From Bacteroidia bacterium (GTDB taxonomy: Bacteria > Bacteroidota > Bacteroidia > UKL13-3), in the NCBI GenBank assembly GCA_051861545.1, contig JBIMKP010000007.1, forward strand, positions 5,206 to 69,205: a stretch of DNA of 64,000 bases. The letters run 5' to 3'. Made by a program: the position numbers and the translations under genes. The notes beneath the pieces are model-generated. The model did no database searches. It had not been told where the DNA came from and worked only from the letters and a program-made list of their open reading frames with translations. This document shows positions 4,409 to 47,733 of the stretch, piece by piece (position 1 is the stretch's first letter; every line of letters begins with the position of its first letter).

Positions 4409-4796
4409 GGATAGCTATATTTTTACTGTAAGTGATTTTTAGTAAATAGGGTTCATATTTTGATTGAAATTTTCAAAAAGTAGTTTGGTTTTAAATTTCT
4501 CTATTTTACAAAATTTAAGACCCCGATAGGTGGTCTCATGTTTATAGAAAAATGCTTTAGATAGACTTCTCCTCCCATTTCTCTTCAAGGCGGACCTTCG
4601 GTCCGCCTTGAAGAGAAATGGGAGGGACTTTGCATTAAATTTCTTTTTCTATAATCATGTCATCCCTTCTGGATTTTTAAAAACTTGTTCTAGTTCTCGT
4701 TTATCTTTTAGGGTTGATTTTAATGAGTATAATCAAAATAAAATTATTTAAGATTCGCTAAAGGTTTTTTCTAGTATAAAGCCGCTTAATCGTATT
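4409..4796. mobile_element. MITE-like intergenic repeat, copy 1 (~390 bp, non-coding)
   Basis: Shares conserved blocks with the copies at 9545, 33202 and 47346: ttttcaaaaa.tagtttgg, aagaccccgataggtggtctcatgtttatagaaaaatgct, ataatcatgtcatccctt. Contains a perfect 55-bp palindrome at 4571-4625. Confidence 0.7.
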
Positions 4797-9544: not shown

Positions 9545-9946
9545 GAATACCGCAAATTTACCAGTTGAAAAAATATTAGGATAGCTGATCCTAGTATTAT
9601 TCTTGTCTTAAACTAATTCAAAAGTTGCATGTTATTTTGCTTCAATATTGAACTTTGAACAAACAAAAATTATATTTAAACTGCGTAAAAACCCCGTTAG
9701 GTGGTTTAACATTGGTAGTATTAAAATCGTTTGAACGTCCTACGCAACGCCCTCTCTTCCGCGGACCGAAGGTCCGCGGAAGAGAGGGCGTTGCGGGTGT
9801 GTTTATTCATTTATGTTCTACCAGTGTTATGTACCTGACGGCACAAAAGATTTTAGTAAAATGAAAGTTCAATTTTAAAAAGAAAGAATTAAAAATTCCC
9901 TTAATCCCAAGAAGAAAACTTTTTTTAGGAAAAGAAGCGGATAGTC
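9545..9946. mobile_element. MITE-like intergenic repeat, copy 2 (diverged)
   Basis: Left end gaataccgcaaatttaccag and right end gaagcggatagtc match the TIR region of the other copies. Conserved ccccg.taggtggt block. Perfect 53-bp palindrome at 9743-9795. Confidence 0.6.
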
Positions 9947-33201: not shown

Positions 33202-33598
33202 GAGTATCCGCATTTACCAGCAGTAATTTTTTATAAATCCGGTGCATGTTTTGAGAAATATTTTCAAAAAATAGTTTGGAATAAAATTGCTCTATATAGT
33301 GAAGTTTAAGACCCCGATAGGTGGTCTCATGTTTATAGAAAAATGCTCGAAATGGATTCCCCCAAATCTCTACAAACGCGGACCAAAGGTCCGCGTTTGT
33401 AGAGATTTGGGGTGGTTTTTCTTTACTTTTTTTCTTCTATAATCATGTCATCCCTTCAGGATTTTAAGAATTTCAAGAAAGAACTTGTTCCTGATTTAAA
33501 TTCATGTTTGGGGTTTATTTTGATTTTATTGAGTAAGCATCTTTATTAAAGCTTTGAAGATTCGTAAAACAGATTCTTAGATAAAGAAGCGGATACTC
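33202..33598. mobile_element. MITE-like intergenic repeat, copy 3 (best preserved; 10-bp TIR gagtatccgc / gcggatactc)
   Basis: The TIRs are read directly. The element is flanked by ~20-bp direct repeats atactcatattgttttt(t)tgcg at 33181-33202 and 33593-33613. The internal perfect palindrome is at 33366-33418. Confidence 0.7.
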
Positions 33599-43839: not shown

Positions 43840-43982
43840 TATCAAATTTTAAATGAATAATACTGGGTAAGTTTCTTATCCGGTATTTTTCGTTTATGTG
43901 AGTATACAAAGTTTGAATTAGCAAATTTCTAATTTAGATTTATCTACTTGATAAATCTAATAGATGAAATGCTAAAAATTTT

Positions 43983-44071
43983 GGGGGATTAGCTCATTTG
44001 CTATGATGATTCTATCAGCATTTTGCTAGAGCGTGCTGACGATACTGTCAGCAAGGTGACCGGTTCAAGTG
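43983..44071 (+). pseudogene. Degenerate tRNA-Ala-derived copy A
   Basis: GGGGGATTAGCTCATTTG is identical to the tRNA 5' end. A 25-nt insertion (ctatgatgattctatcagcattttg) sits in the D-loop. The anticodon arm is replaced by hairpin TGCTGAC-GATACT-GTCAGCA. The T-arm is truncated (ggtgaccggttcaagtg). Confidence 0.55.
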
Positions 44072-44083
44072 AAAAAAATAAAA

Positions 44084-44157
44084 GGGGGATTAGCTCATTT
44101 GGCTAGAGCGCTTGCCTGGCAGGCAAGAGGTGACCGGTTCGAATCCGGTATTCTCCA
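44084..44157 (+). tRNA. tRNA-Ala (anticodon GGC)
   Basis: Folded by hand. Acceptor GGGGGAT/ATTCTCC with the G3:U70 Ala identity pair. D-arm GCTC-ATTTGGCTA-GAGC. Anticodon arm CTTGC-CTGGCAG-GCAAG. Variable loop AGGTG. T-arm ACCGG-TTCGAAT-CCGGT. Discriminator A. No encoded CCA. Confidence 0.85.
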
Positions 44158-44168
44158 CTGAATAATAA

Positions 44169-44193
44169 GAAGACGGCTTAGGTCGTCTTTTTT
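44169..44193 (+). terminator. Rho-independent terminator after tRNA-Ala
   Basis: aagacg-gcttaggt-cgtctt followed by a 7-nt T-run. Confidence 0.6.
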
Positions 44194-44198
44194 TGTTT

Positions 44199-44275
44199 TT
44201 GGGATTAGCTCATTTGGATAGAGCGTGCTGACAGTATCGTCAGCAAGGTGACCGGTTTGAATCCGGTATTCTCCA
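44199..44275 (+). pseudogene. Degenerate tRNA-Ala-derived copy C
   Basis: The acceptor 5' strand has mutated to TTGGGAT. D-arm and T-arm are intact. The anticodon arm is replaced by hairpin TGCTGAC-AGTATC-GTCAGCA, the exact reverse complement of the hairpin in copy A. Confidence 0.55.
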
Positions 44276-44314
44276 CTGAATTAAACACGATTATGTTCGT
44301 CTTTTTTGTTTTTA

Positions 44315-44354
44315 GGGATTAGCTTAATTGTGCTGAGGATTCTATCAGCATTTG
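44315..44354 (+). pseudogene. tRNA-derived 5' fragment D
   Basis: gggattagcttaattg followed by hairpin tgctga-ggattcta-tcagca. Rest of the tRNA is absent. Confidence 0.45.
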
Positions 44355-44534
44355 AAAACCACACAGAATTAAATGGTTATATTAAAAATTATCTTTCTTC
44401 AAATTCAAGTAAACAAGTGAGTGTTGAGGTTTTAACTCAGTCGGATGCCGAACAACTATTAGCAAGCATAAAAGAAAAGATTGAGTTACATGAACAAGCA
44501 AAATAACAAAAGCCCGAAATTAATCGGGCTTTTG

Positions 44535-44696
44535 TTATTTTAAGGCTTTTGCTATTAAGCTAATGGCTAGTATTGCAGCTGAGGTTAGCACAATAGCGTT
44601 AACTATCTCAGCTGTTTTGCCATATACTGTAACACAAGTTTGCTTGTTGCACAGTGTAACTTTTTCGCCTTTGGGGTAATTGTATAAATTACTCAT
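44535..44696 (-). CDS. Possible small membrane protein (53 aa)
   Basis: Not in the ORF track. MSNLYNYPKGEKVTLCNKQTCVTVYGKTAEIVNAIVLTSAAILAISLIAKALK. Ends at the palindromic terminator aaaagcccgaaattaatcgggctttt (44508-44533). Confidence 0.25.
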   Translation of the reverse strand: MSNLYNYPKGEKVTLCNKQTCVTVYGKTAEIVNAIVLTSAAILAISLIAKALK

Positions 44697-44762
44697 AAAG
44701 ATAAAAAATTAAATTGTAACAATTCCCTCACTCTTACCCGGAGGGTTCAAGTTTCTGTTGTA

Positions 44763-44930
44763 TTACTCTTTTGTAATACCTTTAAATGGAGTGCCGTCAG
44801 ATTTGCCATCCATAAACTTTCCGTCTGGACCTCTTTTTGTCCAGATTTTAGTTAACGGATTTAAAACTTGAGTACGATCTTTAACAGCACCTTTACGGTG
44901 GCCATCTCCAATTGGCGCATTTTTAGCCAT
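44763..44930 (-). CDS. Possible small basic protein (55 aa)
   Basis: Not in the ORF track. MAKNAPIGDGHRKGAVKDRTQVLNPLTKIWTKRGPDGKFMDGKSDGTPFKGITKE. ATG start. No homology recognised. Confidence 0.3.
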   Translation of the reverse strand: MAKNAPIGDGHRKGAVKDRTQVLNPLTKIWTKRGPDGKFMDGKSDGTPFKGITKE

Positions 44931-45126
44931 AATGTTCTAAAATTTAACTTTACAGGCTGTTTTAAACTGAGCCACCTGTCACCAAGCCAAGAAAAAGACA
45001 TTTTGAATACTACCAGCAATTGTTACATTTGTGTTACCAAACAAAATATGTTAGCATGAGCTTGCAGAATTCGGGGGAGTCTTTTTCGGCTTCCCCTTTT
45101 TATTACACAAATTTAAATCTTTGTTT

Positions 45127-45160
45127 TGGACAAATCAGAAATATTTTTTATATTTGTCCA
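45127..45160. promoter_or_regulatory. 9-bp inverted repeat tggacaaat-N16-atttgtcca overlapping a TAnnTTTG -7 box (tatatttg, 45149-45156) upstream of the XRE-ImmA gene
   Basis: Perfect inverted repeat read in the sequence. An operator overlapping the promoter suggests autorepression by the HTH domain. Confidence 0.4.
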
Positions 45161-45201
45161 TAAGTTTTTCCCATTCCTAAGGCAATCAACTCTTTCACTA
45201 T

Positions 45202-46263
45202 ATGCAATACTTCAGCAGTCGATTAAAAAGCGCGAGGGTAATGAATGGTTTTTCATTACAAGATTTATCTGATAAATTGAAAGGAGAAATTTCTAAACAA
45301 GATTTGAATAGATTAGAATTAGGTTTAAATCAGCCTAATAGTGAAATTTTAGCTAAGCTTTCTTCTGCTTTGAATATTCCTTCTGATTATTTTTTTAGAA
45401 ATGAAACAATCAATCTTCCTTCCGTTGAATTTAGAAAACTAACCAAACTTCCTAAAAAAGACCAAGAAGCTGTTAAAGGAAAAACCATTGATTTTTTAGA
45501 ACGATACGCAGAGCTTGAGAATTTAATGGGTGTATCTCAATCACCAGTATTTAATCATAAAGAGTATGTGATCAATTTTAATAGTCCTGAAGAAATTGAA
45601 AAAGCGGCCAATGTTTTCAGATCTAAATTAAATCTTGGTATAGATCCCATTTATAATCTTATTGAATTGTTAGAAGAAAATGGAGTTAGGGTGTTTTCTA
45701 CAATTGCTTCTCCATCATTTTCTGGAATGTCCACTTGTGTTGCAAATTCACTATTAGTGGTTGTTTTTAATAATAATGAAGAAATACCTTTAGTAAGAAA
45801 ACGATTTACCATTTTGCATGAAATCGCACATTTATTTTTGGATTTGGAGAAATTCGAAGATAAAGTGAAAGAGCGTATTTGTGATTCTTTTGCAGGGGCA
45901 GTGTTGCTTCCCCAAAAGAAGTTATTAGAATATTTTGGTCCCAAAAGAAATAATTTTCTCACTAAAGAATTAATGGCTATAAAATCATATTTCGGAATTT
46001 CAATACCAGCAATTATTTATCGAGCGAATTCAAACCAAATAGTGAGTGACAATTATCTTAAATACTTTATGATTCGGTATAATAAAGAATATAAGGATTT
46101 GGAAAAAAACGGCTATTTAGGGAAGGAAGAGTCTCAAAGGTTTACTCAATTGCTGCTTAGGGCAGTTGCTGAGGAGGTAGTAACTTCTTCAAAAGCTGCA
46201 TCTTTGAATAACCAAAAACTATGGGAGTTTAGAAAGCAATTCATTGATAATATCTCTTATTAA
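45202..46263 (+). CDS. XRE-family HTH fused to ImmA/IrrE-type (M78) zinc metallopeptidase
   Basis: N-terminal HTH (..LKSARVMNGFSLQDLSDKL..). C-terminal HExxH motif ILHEIAHLFLD with downstream conserved E/D. 353 aa. Confidence 0.7.
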   Translation: MQYFSSRLKSARVMNGFSLQDLSDKLKGEISKQDLNRLELGLNQPNSEILAKLSSALNIPSDYFFRNETINLPSVEFRKLTKLPKKDQEAVKGKTIDFLERYAELENLMGVSQSPVFNHKEYVINFNSPEEIEKAANVFRSKLNLGIDPIYNLIELLEENGVRVFSTIASPSFSGMSTCVANSLLVVVFNNNEEIPLVRKRFTILHEIAHLFLDLEKFEDKVKERICDSFAGAVLLPQKKLLEYFGPKRNNFLTKELMAIKSYFGISIPAIIYRANSNQIVSDNYLKYFMIRYNKEYKDLEKNGYLGKEESQRFTQLLLRAVAEEVVTSSKAASLNNQKLWEFRKQFIDNISY

Positions 46264-46298
46264 GTCCTTTTTAATTTCGCCATCGTAATTCTACTCCA

Positions 46299-46799
46299 AT
46301 GCAAAAAATTGCCATTACTGATGCAAATATTTTTATTGATCTAATCGAAACTGAAATTTTCGAATATTTGTTTCAATTCGGAATAAAAGTACATACTACT
46401 TATGAAGTTTTTGACCAATTAAGCCCAAATCAACAAGAAATACTTAAGTCATTTGAGTTAAATGGAGAACTTGTAATTTACTGTCTTTCATATTATGAAT
46501 TAGTTCAATTAGAGAATTTGCAATTTCCAGCAGGTTTAGAGCTTGCTGATAGATCGGTCTATTTTTATGCAAATAATATTCAAGGTTTGGTTTTAAGTGG
46601 AGATAGAAAACTAAAAAAATATTGTGAAAGTAAGCAACTTCGAGTAAATGGGATAATTTGGGTATTTGACCAGATTCATGAATTTGGTCTTATTCAAAAG
46701 GCCGACTTAGTTTTCAAACTGAAATTATTAATGAAAATAAATAAAAGATTACCTGTCGAAGAATGCAATAAAAGGATTCATGCATGGCTTCAGGGCTAA
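46299..46799 (+). CDS. PIN-like nuclease domain protein (DUF4411-like), partner of the XRE-ImmA gene
   Basis: N-terminal IAITDANIFIDL carries the first PIN Asp. Central ..ELAD.. and SGDRKL acidic motifs. 166 aa. Sits 35 nt downstream on the same strand. Confidence 0.5.
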   Translation: MQKIAITDANIFIDLIETEIFEYLFQFGIKVHTTYEVFDQLSPNQQEILKSFELNGELVIYCLSYYELVQLENLQFPAGLELADRSVYFYANNIQGLVLSGDRKLKKYCESKQLRVNGIIWVFDQIHEFGLIQKADLVFKLKLLMKINKRLPVEECNKRIHAWLQG

Positions 46800-46897
46800 A
46801 TAATTTGCGTTTGCTATTTAAATTAAAAAATTGTTATTACTAAAATGAATTCAATTCTAATTAAAATTCTATTGATAAGGAATTTATTATAAGTTTT

Positions 46898-47263
46898 TCA
46901 CCCCTTCCTCAATATCTTCTCCATCTTTTTTCCTTTTGCCAATTCATCAACCAATTTGTCTAAATAACGAACTTTTTGGGTTAATGGATTAGTAATTTCT
47001 TCGACTTTATAACCGCAAATGTTTCCAGTGATTAAATGTGCATTGGGATTGATTATAGCTTTCTCGAAAAACTGCTCAAAATTGATTTTTTCTTCAATGA
47101 ATTGCTCTATTTGATTTTCATTAAATCCACATAACCATTCAATTACTTCATGTAATTCGGCAATTGTTCTTCCTTTTTTCTCCACTTTCGTAACATAATG
47201 AGGGTAAACAGAGCTAAAACTCATTTTTGTAATTTTTTCGTCGTGGTGGCTCGTACTTTTCAT
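46898..47263 (-). CDS. DUF2200-family protein
   Basis: [34 protein letters not shown] matches the conserved DUF2200 N-terminal block. 121 aa. Confidence 0.45.
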
Positions 47264-47345: not shown

Positions 47346-47733
47346 CCGCATACTTACCAAGTATAATTTTTTATAAATCCCGTGTTTATTTTGAAAAGTA
47401 TTTTCAAAAAGCAGCTTGATGTTAAATTGCTCTTTTTTATGAAATTTATGACCCCGATAGGTGGTCTCATGTTTATAGAAAAATGCTAAAAATGAATTTC
47501 CCAACACTCTACAAACGCGGACCAAAGGTCCGCGTTTGTAGAGTGTTGGGCTGGTTTTCTTTACTTTTTATTTTCTATAATCATGTCATCCCTTCAGGAT
47601 TTTTAAGCGTTTCTAAAAAAAACATGTTTCTGATTTTAATTTATGTTTTAATGAATATTTTGATTTTTTAGAGTCATTATCGGGTTTAAGGCCTTTGAAA
47701 GTTCTTTTAGGTAAATAAGTGGATATTCGTTAG
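47346..47733. mobile_element. MITE-like intergenic repeat, copy 4
   Basis: Closest relative of copy 3, with long near-identical blocks. Flanked by imperfect direct repeats atataaatcaatttt (47331-47345) and atattaaatcaaatt (47734-47748). Palindrome at 47504-47554. Confidence 0.7.

Follow-up and report, generated by a model that had tools for sequence, protein, structure and literature searches.

What are the tRNA-like sequences that crowd around a single tRNA-Ala(GGC) gene in a Bacteroidia bacterium of the lineage UKL13-3, and how did they arise? The window analysed here, a stretch of 64,000 nucleotides of contig JBIMKP010000007.1 (positions 5,206 to 69,205), carries at 43983-44354 one real tRNA-Ala(GGC) gene (unit B) and three tRNA-derived units (A, C and D), in which a 20-nt palindrome, TGCTGA(C/T)-N6-(G/A)TCAGCA, replaces the anticodon arm or sits inside the D loop. 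A preliminary description of this DNA had recognised one genuine tRNA and three degenerate copies, which ARAGORN and Rfam bear out by calling only B, and had offered two origins, stacked att-site scars or a deliberately maintained tRNA-like array. We find one live tRNA-Ala(GGC) in a tandem, strain-variable array of its own dead partial copies, which are probably relics of a family of small cassettes combining a GIY-YIG nuclease gene with hairpin ends.

To describe the array we use a short notation: a and b stand for tRNA positions 1-18 and 19-26, c-d for positions 44-76, ac for the genuine anticodon arm and t for the terminator; H1 is the hairpin TGCTGAC-N6-GTCAGCA and h2 the hairpin TGCTGAT-GATTCT-ATCAGCA followed by TTTG. 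In these terms the first half of the array reads (a, h2', b, H1 with loop GATACT, c to the T loop, A-rich linker) (a, b, ac, c, d, t), and the second half (altered a, b, H1 with loop AGTATC, c, d, t') (altered a, h2, then 2.5 kb of cargo). All of these units lie on the plus strand. Units A, C and D share the starting sequence GGG(GG)ATTAGCTCATTTG, and a search with the D-arm motif gives four true matches in the array, in agreement with the common D-arm claimed earlier. The hairpin pattern is matched three times in the window, where 0.10 matches are expected, and nowhere outside the array; a chance resemblance is excluded.

Unit A (43983-44071), which is not called as a tRNA, runs from tRNA positions 1-18 through a degenerate h2 insert, the remainder of the D arm, H1, the variable loop and the 5' strand of the T stem to the T loop, after which it is cut; it has no 3' acceptor strand. 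Its sequence is GGGGGATTAGCTCATTTG, a 24-nt insert (44001-44024), GCTAGAGCG, the hairpin TGCTGAC-GATACT-GTCAGCA in the place of the anticodon arm (44034-44053; -10.1 kcal/mol, z = -4.2), and then AGGTGACCGGTTCAAGTG. The insert, h2', is a degenerate 20-nt palindrome plus TTTT and lies in the D loop after CATTTG. It had been noticed as an insertion of 25 nt, one too many, and it is a degenerate copy of D's hairpin, with which it shares a 16/16 core, GATTCTATCAGCATTT, at 44008-44023 and 44338-44353. Intact h2, TGCTGATGATTCTATCAGCA plus TTTG or TTCG, is found at the equivalent D-loop site in three related loci (L001, L005 and L007). The A-rich linker that follows (44072-44083) repeats the native upstream flank of the tRNA (..AAATA[T]AA before GGGGG), as seen by comparison with L009 and L001.

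Unit B (44084-44157) is the functional tRNA-Ala(GGC), called by ARAGORN and by Rfam (tRNA, 61.7 bits), and its acceptor strands GGGGGAT/ATTCTCC give the G3:U70 pair that had been ascribed to it. The terminator scan finds its intrinsic terminator at 44167-44192. Unit C (44199-44275) consists of tRNA positions 3-26, H1 and positions 44-76. Its positions 1-2 are mutated to TT and mismatched, its T loop has a C>T change, and TGCTGAC-AGTATC-GTCAGCA (44226-44245; -9.9 kcal/mol, z = -4.6), the exact reverse complement of A's hairpin as the preliminary description had it, takes the place of the 17-nt anticodon arm. The tRNA-terminator copy after C (44276-44312) aligns with B's trailer; it is degenerate and is not called by the terminator scan, which leaves the terminator after B as the one that stands of the two previously assigned. 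Unit D (44315-44354) consists of tRNA positions 3-18 with two mismatches, the h2 hairpin TGCTGAGGATTCTATCAGCA and TTTG, and is truncated by the cargo. The related hairpin that D was said to carry, TGCTGA-GGATTCTA-TCAGCA, is present at 44331-44350 after the 5' tRNA fragment. H1 and h2 are identical at 17/20 positions and differ by a compensated C-G to T-A change, and we therefore treat them as one hairpin family at two positions. The array thus contains two types of unit: upstream units such as A keep the native 5' end, end after the T loop and have no terminator, and downstream units such as C keep the full 3' end and terminator and have lost G1-G2.

Relatives of this locus were fetched with the window's L27 and L21 proteins and came from freshwater metagenome contigs and Bacteroidia metagenome-assembled genomes (MAGs); the L21 look-up returned mostly haplotypes that L27 had already found. 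Among the relatives are the ENA contigs ERZ27272081 and ERZ28593251 and the assembly GCA_943361925.1. The comparison comprises seven haplotypes in which the L27 protein is identical, and ten related loci (L001-L010). These have common flanks, rplU-rpmA upstream and DUF2200, a membrane protein, PhoH2, GldC and alaS downstream, with 83-97% identity. Units other than B number 0, 2, 3, 4 or 5 per relative. L003 and L004 have B only; the commonest type, that of L001, has A, B and a single downstream unit, which is joined to a truncated DUF2200; L005 and L009 have extra downstream units, some with two tandem h2 copies; L007 has two upstream units, B and three downstream units; and the array of L010 is identical to that of the window. 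L001 equals L005 minus one unit, with the join within the common c-d (3') segment, so unequal homologous recombination alters the copy number. B is identical at 74/74 nt in the seven haplotypes. In the other units the D stem (GCTT or CCTC, for instance) and the T stem (CCTG or CTGG) have changed without compensation, and positions 1-2 show every possible dinucleotide. With 0 to 5 units among the relatives, an invariant B and decay in the rest, the array is dispensable and decaying, not a conserved RNA. An alignment of orthologous rpmA-tRNA-Ala loci had been suggested earlier, and by this comparison the array is not an ancient conserved structure.

The hairpin itself is found far beyond this locus. 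We scanned the pattern TGCTGAYGATWCTRTCAGCA in one genome per species (185,579 species, 596 Gb) and found 37 loci, against about 9 by chance (estimated as 596 Gb x 16 / 4^20), with 1-2 exact copies per species genome; a metagenome scan gave 32 loci, and a scan of 2.9 million viral contigs gave one match, which is chance level. About 20 of the matches come from Bacteroidota and place the 20-mer within a dead stable-RNA gene copy that adjoins the live gene. The dead copies are of tRNA-Leu (L011, L013, L037, L041), tRNA-Ser (L018, L019, L025), tRNA-Thr (L022, L055, L064), tRNA-Arg (L058, L076, L079) and the 3' end of 5S rRNA (L043, L054, L063, L077). In L054 (6740-6900), as in the other three 5S loci, the duplication takes in the 5S rRNA 3' end together with the terminator, and nested hairpins of the same families break the second copy; tRNA genes are therefore not the only ones affected. 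The usual place of the hairpin is directly before the T-loop TTCGA (junction 53/54). A second hairpin usually stands 5' of the first, and its outer stem varies by locus yet stays complementary (TCCTGAC/GTCAGGA, CCCTGAC/GTCAGGG, TGATGAC/GTCATCA, TCCCGAC/GTCGGGA, CCGAGAC/GTCTCGG). Further hairpins replace or break D and anticodon arms, a whole tRNA-Leu copy in L041 has both D-loop and T-loop inserts, and in L079 (unit 3) and L054 hairpins are nested inside the loops of other hairpins.

Across 25 variants of the 20-mer, three stem pairs are changed on both sides, by C-G to T-A at pair 7 and by G-C to A-T at pair 2 among others; ten cells of the comparison are changed on both sides, a number reached by 0/500 shuffles. 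The loop has a preferred orientation: AGNATC is always seen at T loops and GATTCT always in D loops, and only at the anticodon position do both occur. The preliminary description had ascribed the inverted hairpins of A and C to recombination through the palindromic stem. The two hairpins are indeed reverse complements, and that mechanism may apply, but a flip by recombination is not required: orientation tracks position, and insertion or descent in two orientations may account for the difference instead.

Three of the hairpin loci have, at the array, an open reading frame (ORF) of 87-94 aa with a GIY-YIG domain (Pfam PF01541). In L011 this ORF has hairpin units on both sides; the first of them is a near-full-length pseudo-tRNA that starts from position ~4 right after the live tRNA's terminator, as in unit C, and the hairpin of C is identical at 19/20 positions to the hairpin flanking this GIY-YIG gene. 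In L025 the ORF lies between copies of a 23-bp repeat of the tRNA-Ser 3' end. Five further contexts were fetched by the GIY-YIG protein alone, independent of the hairpin pattern. In 5/5 of these a tRNA with its terminator (Ser-GGA, Pro-TGG, Asp-GTC, Leu-CAA and Ser-TGA) precedes the gene start by no more than 60 bp, and GAC/GTC-topped hairpins follow on the 3' side of the gene. The last hairpin abuts a repeated TTCGA..3'-end core in 4/5, and the exact TGCTGAC/GTCAGCA stem is present in 3/5 (L092, L097 and L098), where 3e-4 are expected per locus. Tandem arrays, with units 88-100% identical, occur in 3/5: four GIY-YIG ORFs after tRNA-Pro in L094 (576-2122; 399-bp units, 100% and 95% identical), two units after tRNA-Ser in L100 (1074-1851; 99.5% identical) and two after tRNA-Asp in L097 (1383-2230; 88% identical). 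Each of these tandem units opens with a copy of the tRNA from T loop to 3' end and closes with paired hairpins.

A complete cassette measures ~370-400 bp, its GIY-YIG ORF encodes 82-94 aa, and the architecture can be written as tRNA(1-53) / (54-76, terminator, ORF, a few bases from the 5' strand of the T stem, two hairpins) x n / 54-76. The nuclease, a stand-alone protein of UPF0213 type, has the catalytic domain only, and its closest solved structure is 1ZG2 (E = 0.003). L041 (6200-7130) has the layout of a GIY-YIG cassette with other cargo: on one side of its 23S_rRNA_IVP (four-helix-bundle) gene is a live tRNA-Leu(CAA), and on the other a copied tRNA 3' end capped by a hairpin. We found no description of chromosomal hairpin-ended GIY-YIG cassettes at tRNA T loops in Bacteroidota, or of these hairpin sequences, in a literature search of incomplete coverage, and tRNA-linked cassettes are unmentioned in the 2006 GIY-YIG survey.

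The hairpin is thus constantly linked to GIY-YIG cassettes, and the window units have much in common with the units at those loci, namely the signature hairpin, a tandem arrangement in which each unit has its own terminator, and a start at tRNA position ~3-4. The succession B-terminator-C-terminator remnant-D is a series of tandem units after a live tRNA and terminator, as in L011, L079, L094, L097 and L100, and hairpins of the TGCTGAC/GTCAGCA type stand at 44034, 44226 and 44331. We infer that the window units descend from ORF-bearing cassettes and are now ORF-less, decaying, non-autonomous relics at tRNA-Ala(GGC), and that insertion and amplification are driven by breaks which a GIY-YIG protein introduces, whether in cis or in trans. 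Such a nuclease might break DNA at the quasi-palindromic T arm (..GGTTCGAATCC..) or at extruded hairpins. Insertion of a cassette would regenerate a working tRNA and push the older, hairpin-interrupted copy downstream; since the tRNA is left intact, the target would persist and could be struck again, giving rise to arrays, and the units would amplify in tandem. The conserved T loop could supply the microhomology for moving between tRNA species. The window units would then be comparable to solo long terminal repeats or to miniature inverted-repeat transposable elements. Unequal homologous recombination from unit to unit has since altered how many there are, and unrelated cargo has entered at the same junction.

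A wider proposal, which we put forward tentatively, is that Bacteroidota harbour widespread, undescribed miniature cassettes aimed at stable-RNA genes, in which a GIY-YIG nuclease with hairpin ends inserts at stem/loop junctions (typically tRNA 53/54), the target is regenerated and re-hit to yield tandem arrays, and ORF-less units are mobilised or rearranged in trans with the hairpins as cis sites.

Several observations weigh against a cassette origin. The sample is small, ~25 loci of which 8 are GIY-YIG contexts. The hairpins of the window do not occupy the usual site: H1 abuts the variable loop (26/44), h2 lies in the D loop, and none is at 53/54. The one feature located at the T loop is the break point of unit A; it lies just after the loop, which fits a T-loop-centred process. 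Nothing in the GIY-YIG loci examined corresponds to upstream units of the A type, in which the 5' end is intact and the sequence stops after the T loop. Neither a GIY-YIG ORF nor a remnant of one is present in the 64-kb window (best E = 3.6 for a profile of 47 homologues against the six-frame translation), and there is no GIY-YIG gene in L001-L010 or in the seven haplotypes. Because the window units have no UPF0213-type ORF, we call them ORF-less derivatives and not full members of the family. Lastly, there are hairpin clusters with neither a tRNA nor a GIY-YIG gene (L029, L059 and L067), and the cassette of L041 has a 23S_rRNA_IVP gene in the nuclease's place; from these it follows that the hairpin may be the primary mobile entity and the nuclease a frequent cargo.

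This last point leads to the alternative that survives best, although we consider it unlikely: the 20-nt palindromes would be autonomous, tiny mobile or recombinogenic elements, of the kind of repetitive extragenic palindromes (REPs), bacterial interspersed mosaic elements (BIMEs) or cyanobacterial small dispersed repeats (SDRs), moved by an unlinked enzyme. They would survive in redundant tandem duplicates of highly transcribed stable-RNA genes, and the GIY-YIG genes would be unrelated neighbours in other taxa with no part in the window array. The nested hairpins of L079 and L054, the stems maintained by compensation, the multi-family clusters without tRNA or GIY-YIG and the lack of a GIY-YIG gene in the window all agree with this, and the D-loop insert resembles a 20-nt element with a 4-bp TTTG repeat. 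However, the palindromes are not dispersed, being confined to one locus in 64 kb and to 1-2 exact copies per genome in the species representatives, which also rules out a genome-wide dispersed repeat for the window. A selection filter alone leaves the regular partial duplicates of the host gene unexplained, and the hairpin has a fixed place in 8/8 GIY-YIG contexts. Nor was a Y1/RAYT-type transposase, or any other IS200/IS605 or RAYT transposase in cis, matched near any locus; this is weak evidence, and such a gene may be located elsewhere in the genome.

Far less probable still is a functional tRNA-like RNA array, in which the units would serve as decoys, RNase P/Z signals, non-decoding tRNAs chargeable by alanyl-tRNA synthetase (AlaRS) or regulatory RNAs. 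Unit C retains G3:U70, a cloverleaf-like fold can be drawn for it in which a stable hairpin takes the anticodon position (-24.5 kcal/mol, z = -2.1), and compensatory change preserves the hairpin stems. The tRNA-like parts, in contrast, have uncompensated stem mutations, and the fold of A is no better than that of shuffled sequence (z = -0.07). Pairs 1:72 and 2:71 are destroyed in every downstream unit; C itself is mismatched at T1.C72 and T2.C71, and its hairpin stem of 7 bp closes a loop of 6 nt. The upstream units have no 3' acceptor strand, and D ends after the D-loop hairpin, so that canonical stems are not formed. ARAGORN calls none of A, C and D, and Rfam RF00005 matches B alone even at E<=10, as the tRNA-caller check proposed earlier had sought to establish; in the ten related loci, likewise, only B is called. 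A functional, suppressor or intron-containing tRNA is ruled out by these calls together with the damaged acceptor stems. The Rfam scan of the array gave no family besides B's tRNA, the YrlA model (RF02553) scoring 19.7 bits across the B-C junction against a threshold of 69. Elsewhere the same hairpins break T loops, D loops and 5S ends, and no single RNA architecture fits them all. A conserved, maintained array, the second origin offered in the preliminary description, is unlikely when the close relatives L003 and L004 lack it entirely, copy number runs from 0 to 5, and acceptor positions 1-2 and the D and T stems have decayed beside an invariant B.

Least probable of all are classical att-site scars, left as stacked attL/attR by serial integration and excision of integrase-bearing islands or phages within tRNA-Ala. 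In their favour are the direct repeats of tRNA segments beside the tRNA, the variable island directly downstream and the well-known fact that integrating genetic elements leave tRNA gene fragments as a by-product (PMC9897764). Stacked insertion or duplication relics are indeed what we see, with 0-5 units among the L27-identical relatives, but the integrase crossover in the anticodon loop that had been proposed is not supported. tRNA sequence flanks the hairpin on both sides, including the 5' part (positions 1/3-26 and 44-76), which integration does not duplicate. The hairpin is an independent module, found elsewhere also in D loops, T loops and 5S rRNA copies, and the units, of 90-120 bp, follow each other without intervening sequence. 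A phmmer search of the window with XerD at E<=10, of limited sensitivity for very divergent integrases, detected no tyrosine recombinase, and none was found within a few kb of the hairpins in ~25 loci, bar an Xer-like gene beyond four tRNAs in L064. The Pfam-identifiable neighbours are housekeeping genes, among 69 ORFs and the 25 most frequent of 89 families, which does not fully exclude an integrase. The near-absence of the pattern from viral contigs, with that integrase search, also rejects a phage or island attP. A CRISPR-like or guide-RNA reading (hairpin, 20-30-nt tRNA-identical "guide", terminator) is rejected since no effector lies nearby and the GIY-YIG architecture explains the layout, and an integron attC array since there is no IntI, the G/TTCGAA of other taxa resembles G/TTRRRY only superficially and the window junctions differ.

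Among characterised systems, SegB of phages T4/T6 comes closest; it is a free-standing GIY-YIG homing endonuclease in a tRNA gene cluster that drives segmental tandem amplification of tRNA-containing segments and has a statistically strong tRNA association across phages (PMC13096335). The cassettes resemble it in having a GIY-YIG gene beside tRNA genes and tandem amplification of tRNA segments, which in SegB is nuclease-dependent. SegB is a phage enzyme of ~220 aa with a DNA-binding domain, whereas the Bacteroidota proteins are chromosomal, UPF0213-like and limited to the catalytic domain; their cassettes, furthermore, supply a substitute 3' end for the tRNA and close with paired palindromic hairpins, and the window array has no nuclease gene. 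Hairpin-ended tRNA cassettes in Bacteroidota are apparently new. The fragments left by integration share with the window dead partial tRNA copies beside an intact tRNA, stacked events and an element that replaces the displaced part of the tRNA, but here there is no integrase, the tRNA 5' part is included, conserved hairpins stand at stem/loop junctions, and the units, ~100-400 bp, are directly tandem. Classes of integrase sublocation were reportedly set out by Williams in 2002.

Very small palindromic repeats of high copy number and dispersed location are familiar as SDRs, as REP/BIME sequences with their RAYT transposases and as the double-hairpin elements of fungal mitochondria; the cyanobacterial SDRs are said to have been treated by Elhai et al. 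in 2008. Like these, the hairpins described here are 20-27 nt long, kept by compensation, nested and inserted in the loops of structured RNAs. Unlike them, the window-type hairpin is low-copy (1-5 per genome) and confined to dead stable-RNA copies and GIY-YIG cassettes. In Allomyces mitochondria a homing-endonuclease ORF brings a duplicate 3' end of the invaded gene, atp6; as we propose for our loci, the invader regenerates the host gene and the native 3' end is displaced downstream as a pseudo-fragment. Intervening sequences of 23S rRNA encode the four-helix-bundle IVP protein and are likewise small selfish ORFs in or next to stable-RNA genes, and L041 carries such a gene. Hosts and enzymes differ in both cases, and we know of no tandem arrays or conserved terminal hairpins in either. 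The tyrT-rtT locus of E. coli has tandem repeats downstream of a tRNA, each with the tRNA 3' end, that arose by unequal crossing-over; it resembles the window array in these repeats and differs from it in having no palindromic modules, no replacement of a tRNA arm and no link to nuclease cassettes.

Though itself probably a relic, the window array opened the way to a family of elements that is coherent and apparently undescribed. It provides a definite source for the puzzling "pseudo-tRNA" clusters that annotation pipelines overlook or misinterpret. It also points to tiny selfish cassettes, in a major bacterial phylum, whose targets are essential genes for tRNA and 5S rRNA that survive the insertion. 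Should the GIY-YIG nuclease recognise the palindrome of the T arm or the 7-6-7 hairpins, it would count as a novel, compact nuclease with site or structure specificity, and the cassettes would be a natural model for target-regenerating homing with tandem amplification. Paired hairpins would be a simple sequence marker for such elements, and the arrays mark recombination hotspots for unrelated cargo, here a toxin-antitoxin-like pair.

The region that contains the array is an insertion hotspot, since a 2.5-kb cargo (44355-46892) follows directly after D's hairpin in this strain only; it is present in the window and L010 and absent from L001-L009. By Pfam and NCBIfam the cargo contains a gene with a helix-turn-helix and Peptidase_M78, resembling the "spr1629-family repressor/antitoxin" (45241-46263), and a DUF3368 gene (46299-46799), which look like a toxin-antitoxin or defence-like pair. 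It also holds two tiny minus-strand ORFs of 53 and 55 aa. A look-up of the cargo in other contexts returned only the same contig. A 66-aa ORF with a TTG start and no Pfam match (44306-44506), possibly a small gene, starts in C's terminator remnant, crosses D into the cargo and ends at a strong bidirectional terminator (44499-44542).

The left edge of the variable region is the terminator of rpmA (L27), found by the terminator scan at 43859-43887 on the plus strand, and homology with the empty-site strain L003 stops at ~43903. The spacer between edge and array is strain-specific and differs in other haplotypes. It holds a perfect AT-rich inverted repeat, TTAGATTTATC/GATAAATCTAA (43934-43960), which was reported as perfect with arms of 10 bp; perfect it is, with arms of 11 bp (43934-43944 and 43950-43960). 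The right edge is a DUF2200 gene on the minus strand (46898-47263), which in L001-type strains is truncated and fused to a tRNA-like unit. In this commonest haplotype (L001 6698-6860; also L005, L009, L046 and L088-L091) the last unit joins the interior of DUF2200 at ..GGTATTCTC; the L001-type haplotype lacks DUF1801, and a 73-aa gene call there, "DUF2200 (weak)", is the truncated remnant.

The alaS gene lies a few kb downstream of tRNA-Ala(GGC), ~5 kb from the array, in all haplotypes L001-L009, which is probably coincidental synteny. The contig CALRIT020000011.1 (L007/L035) is labelled as a MAG of the cyanobacterium Vulcanococcus limneticus; it carries a Bacteroidota-typical GldC-like (PF19937) gliding gene, is syntenic with the window and is probably mis-binned. 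The window also contains four perfect palindromes of ~50 bp (4560-4635, 9730-9805, 33350-33420 and 47490-47560) with the core CGCGGACC-NNN-GGTCCGCG. The outer stems of these GCGGACC-N3-GGTCCGC palindromes differ and are fully compensated, and they form a separate, dispersed, REP-like family, one member of which lies in a variable stretch where other strains have a DUF1801 gene.

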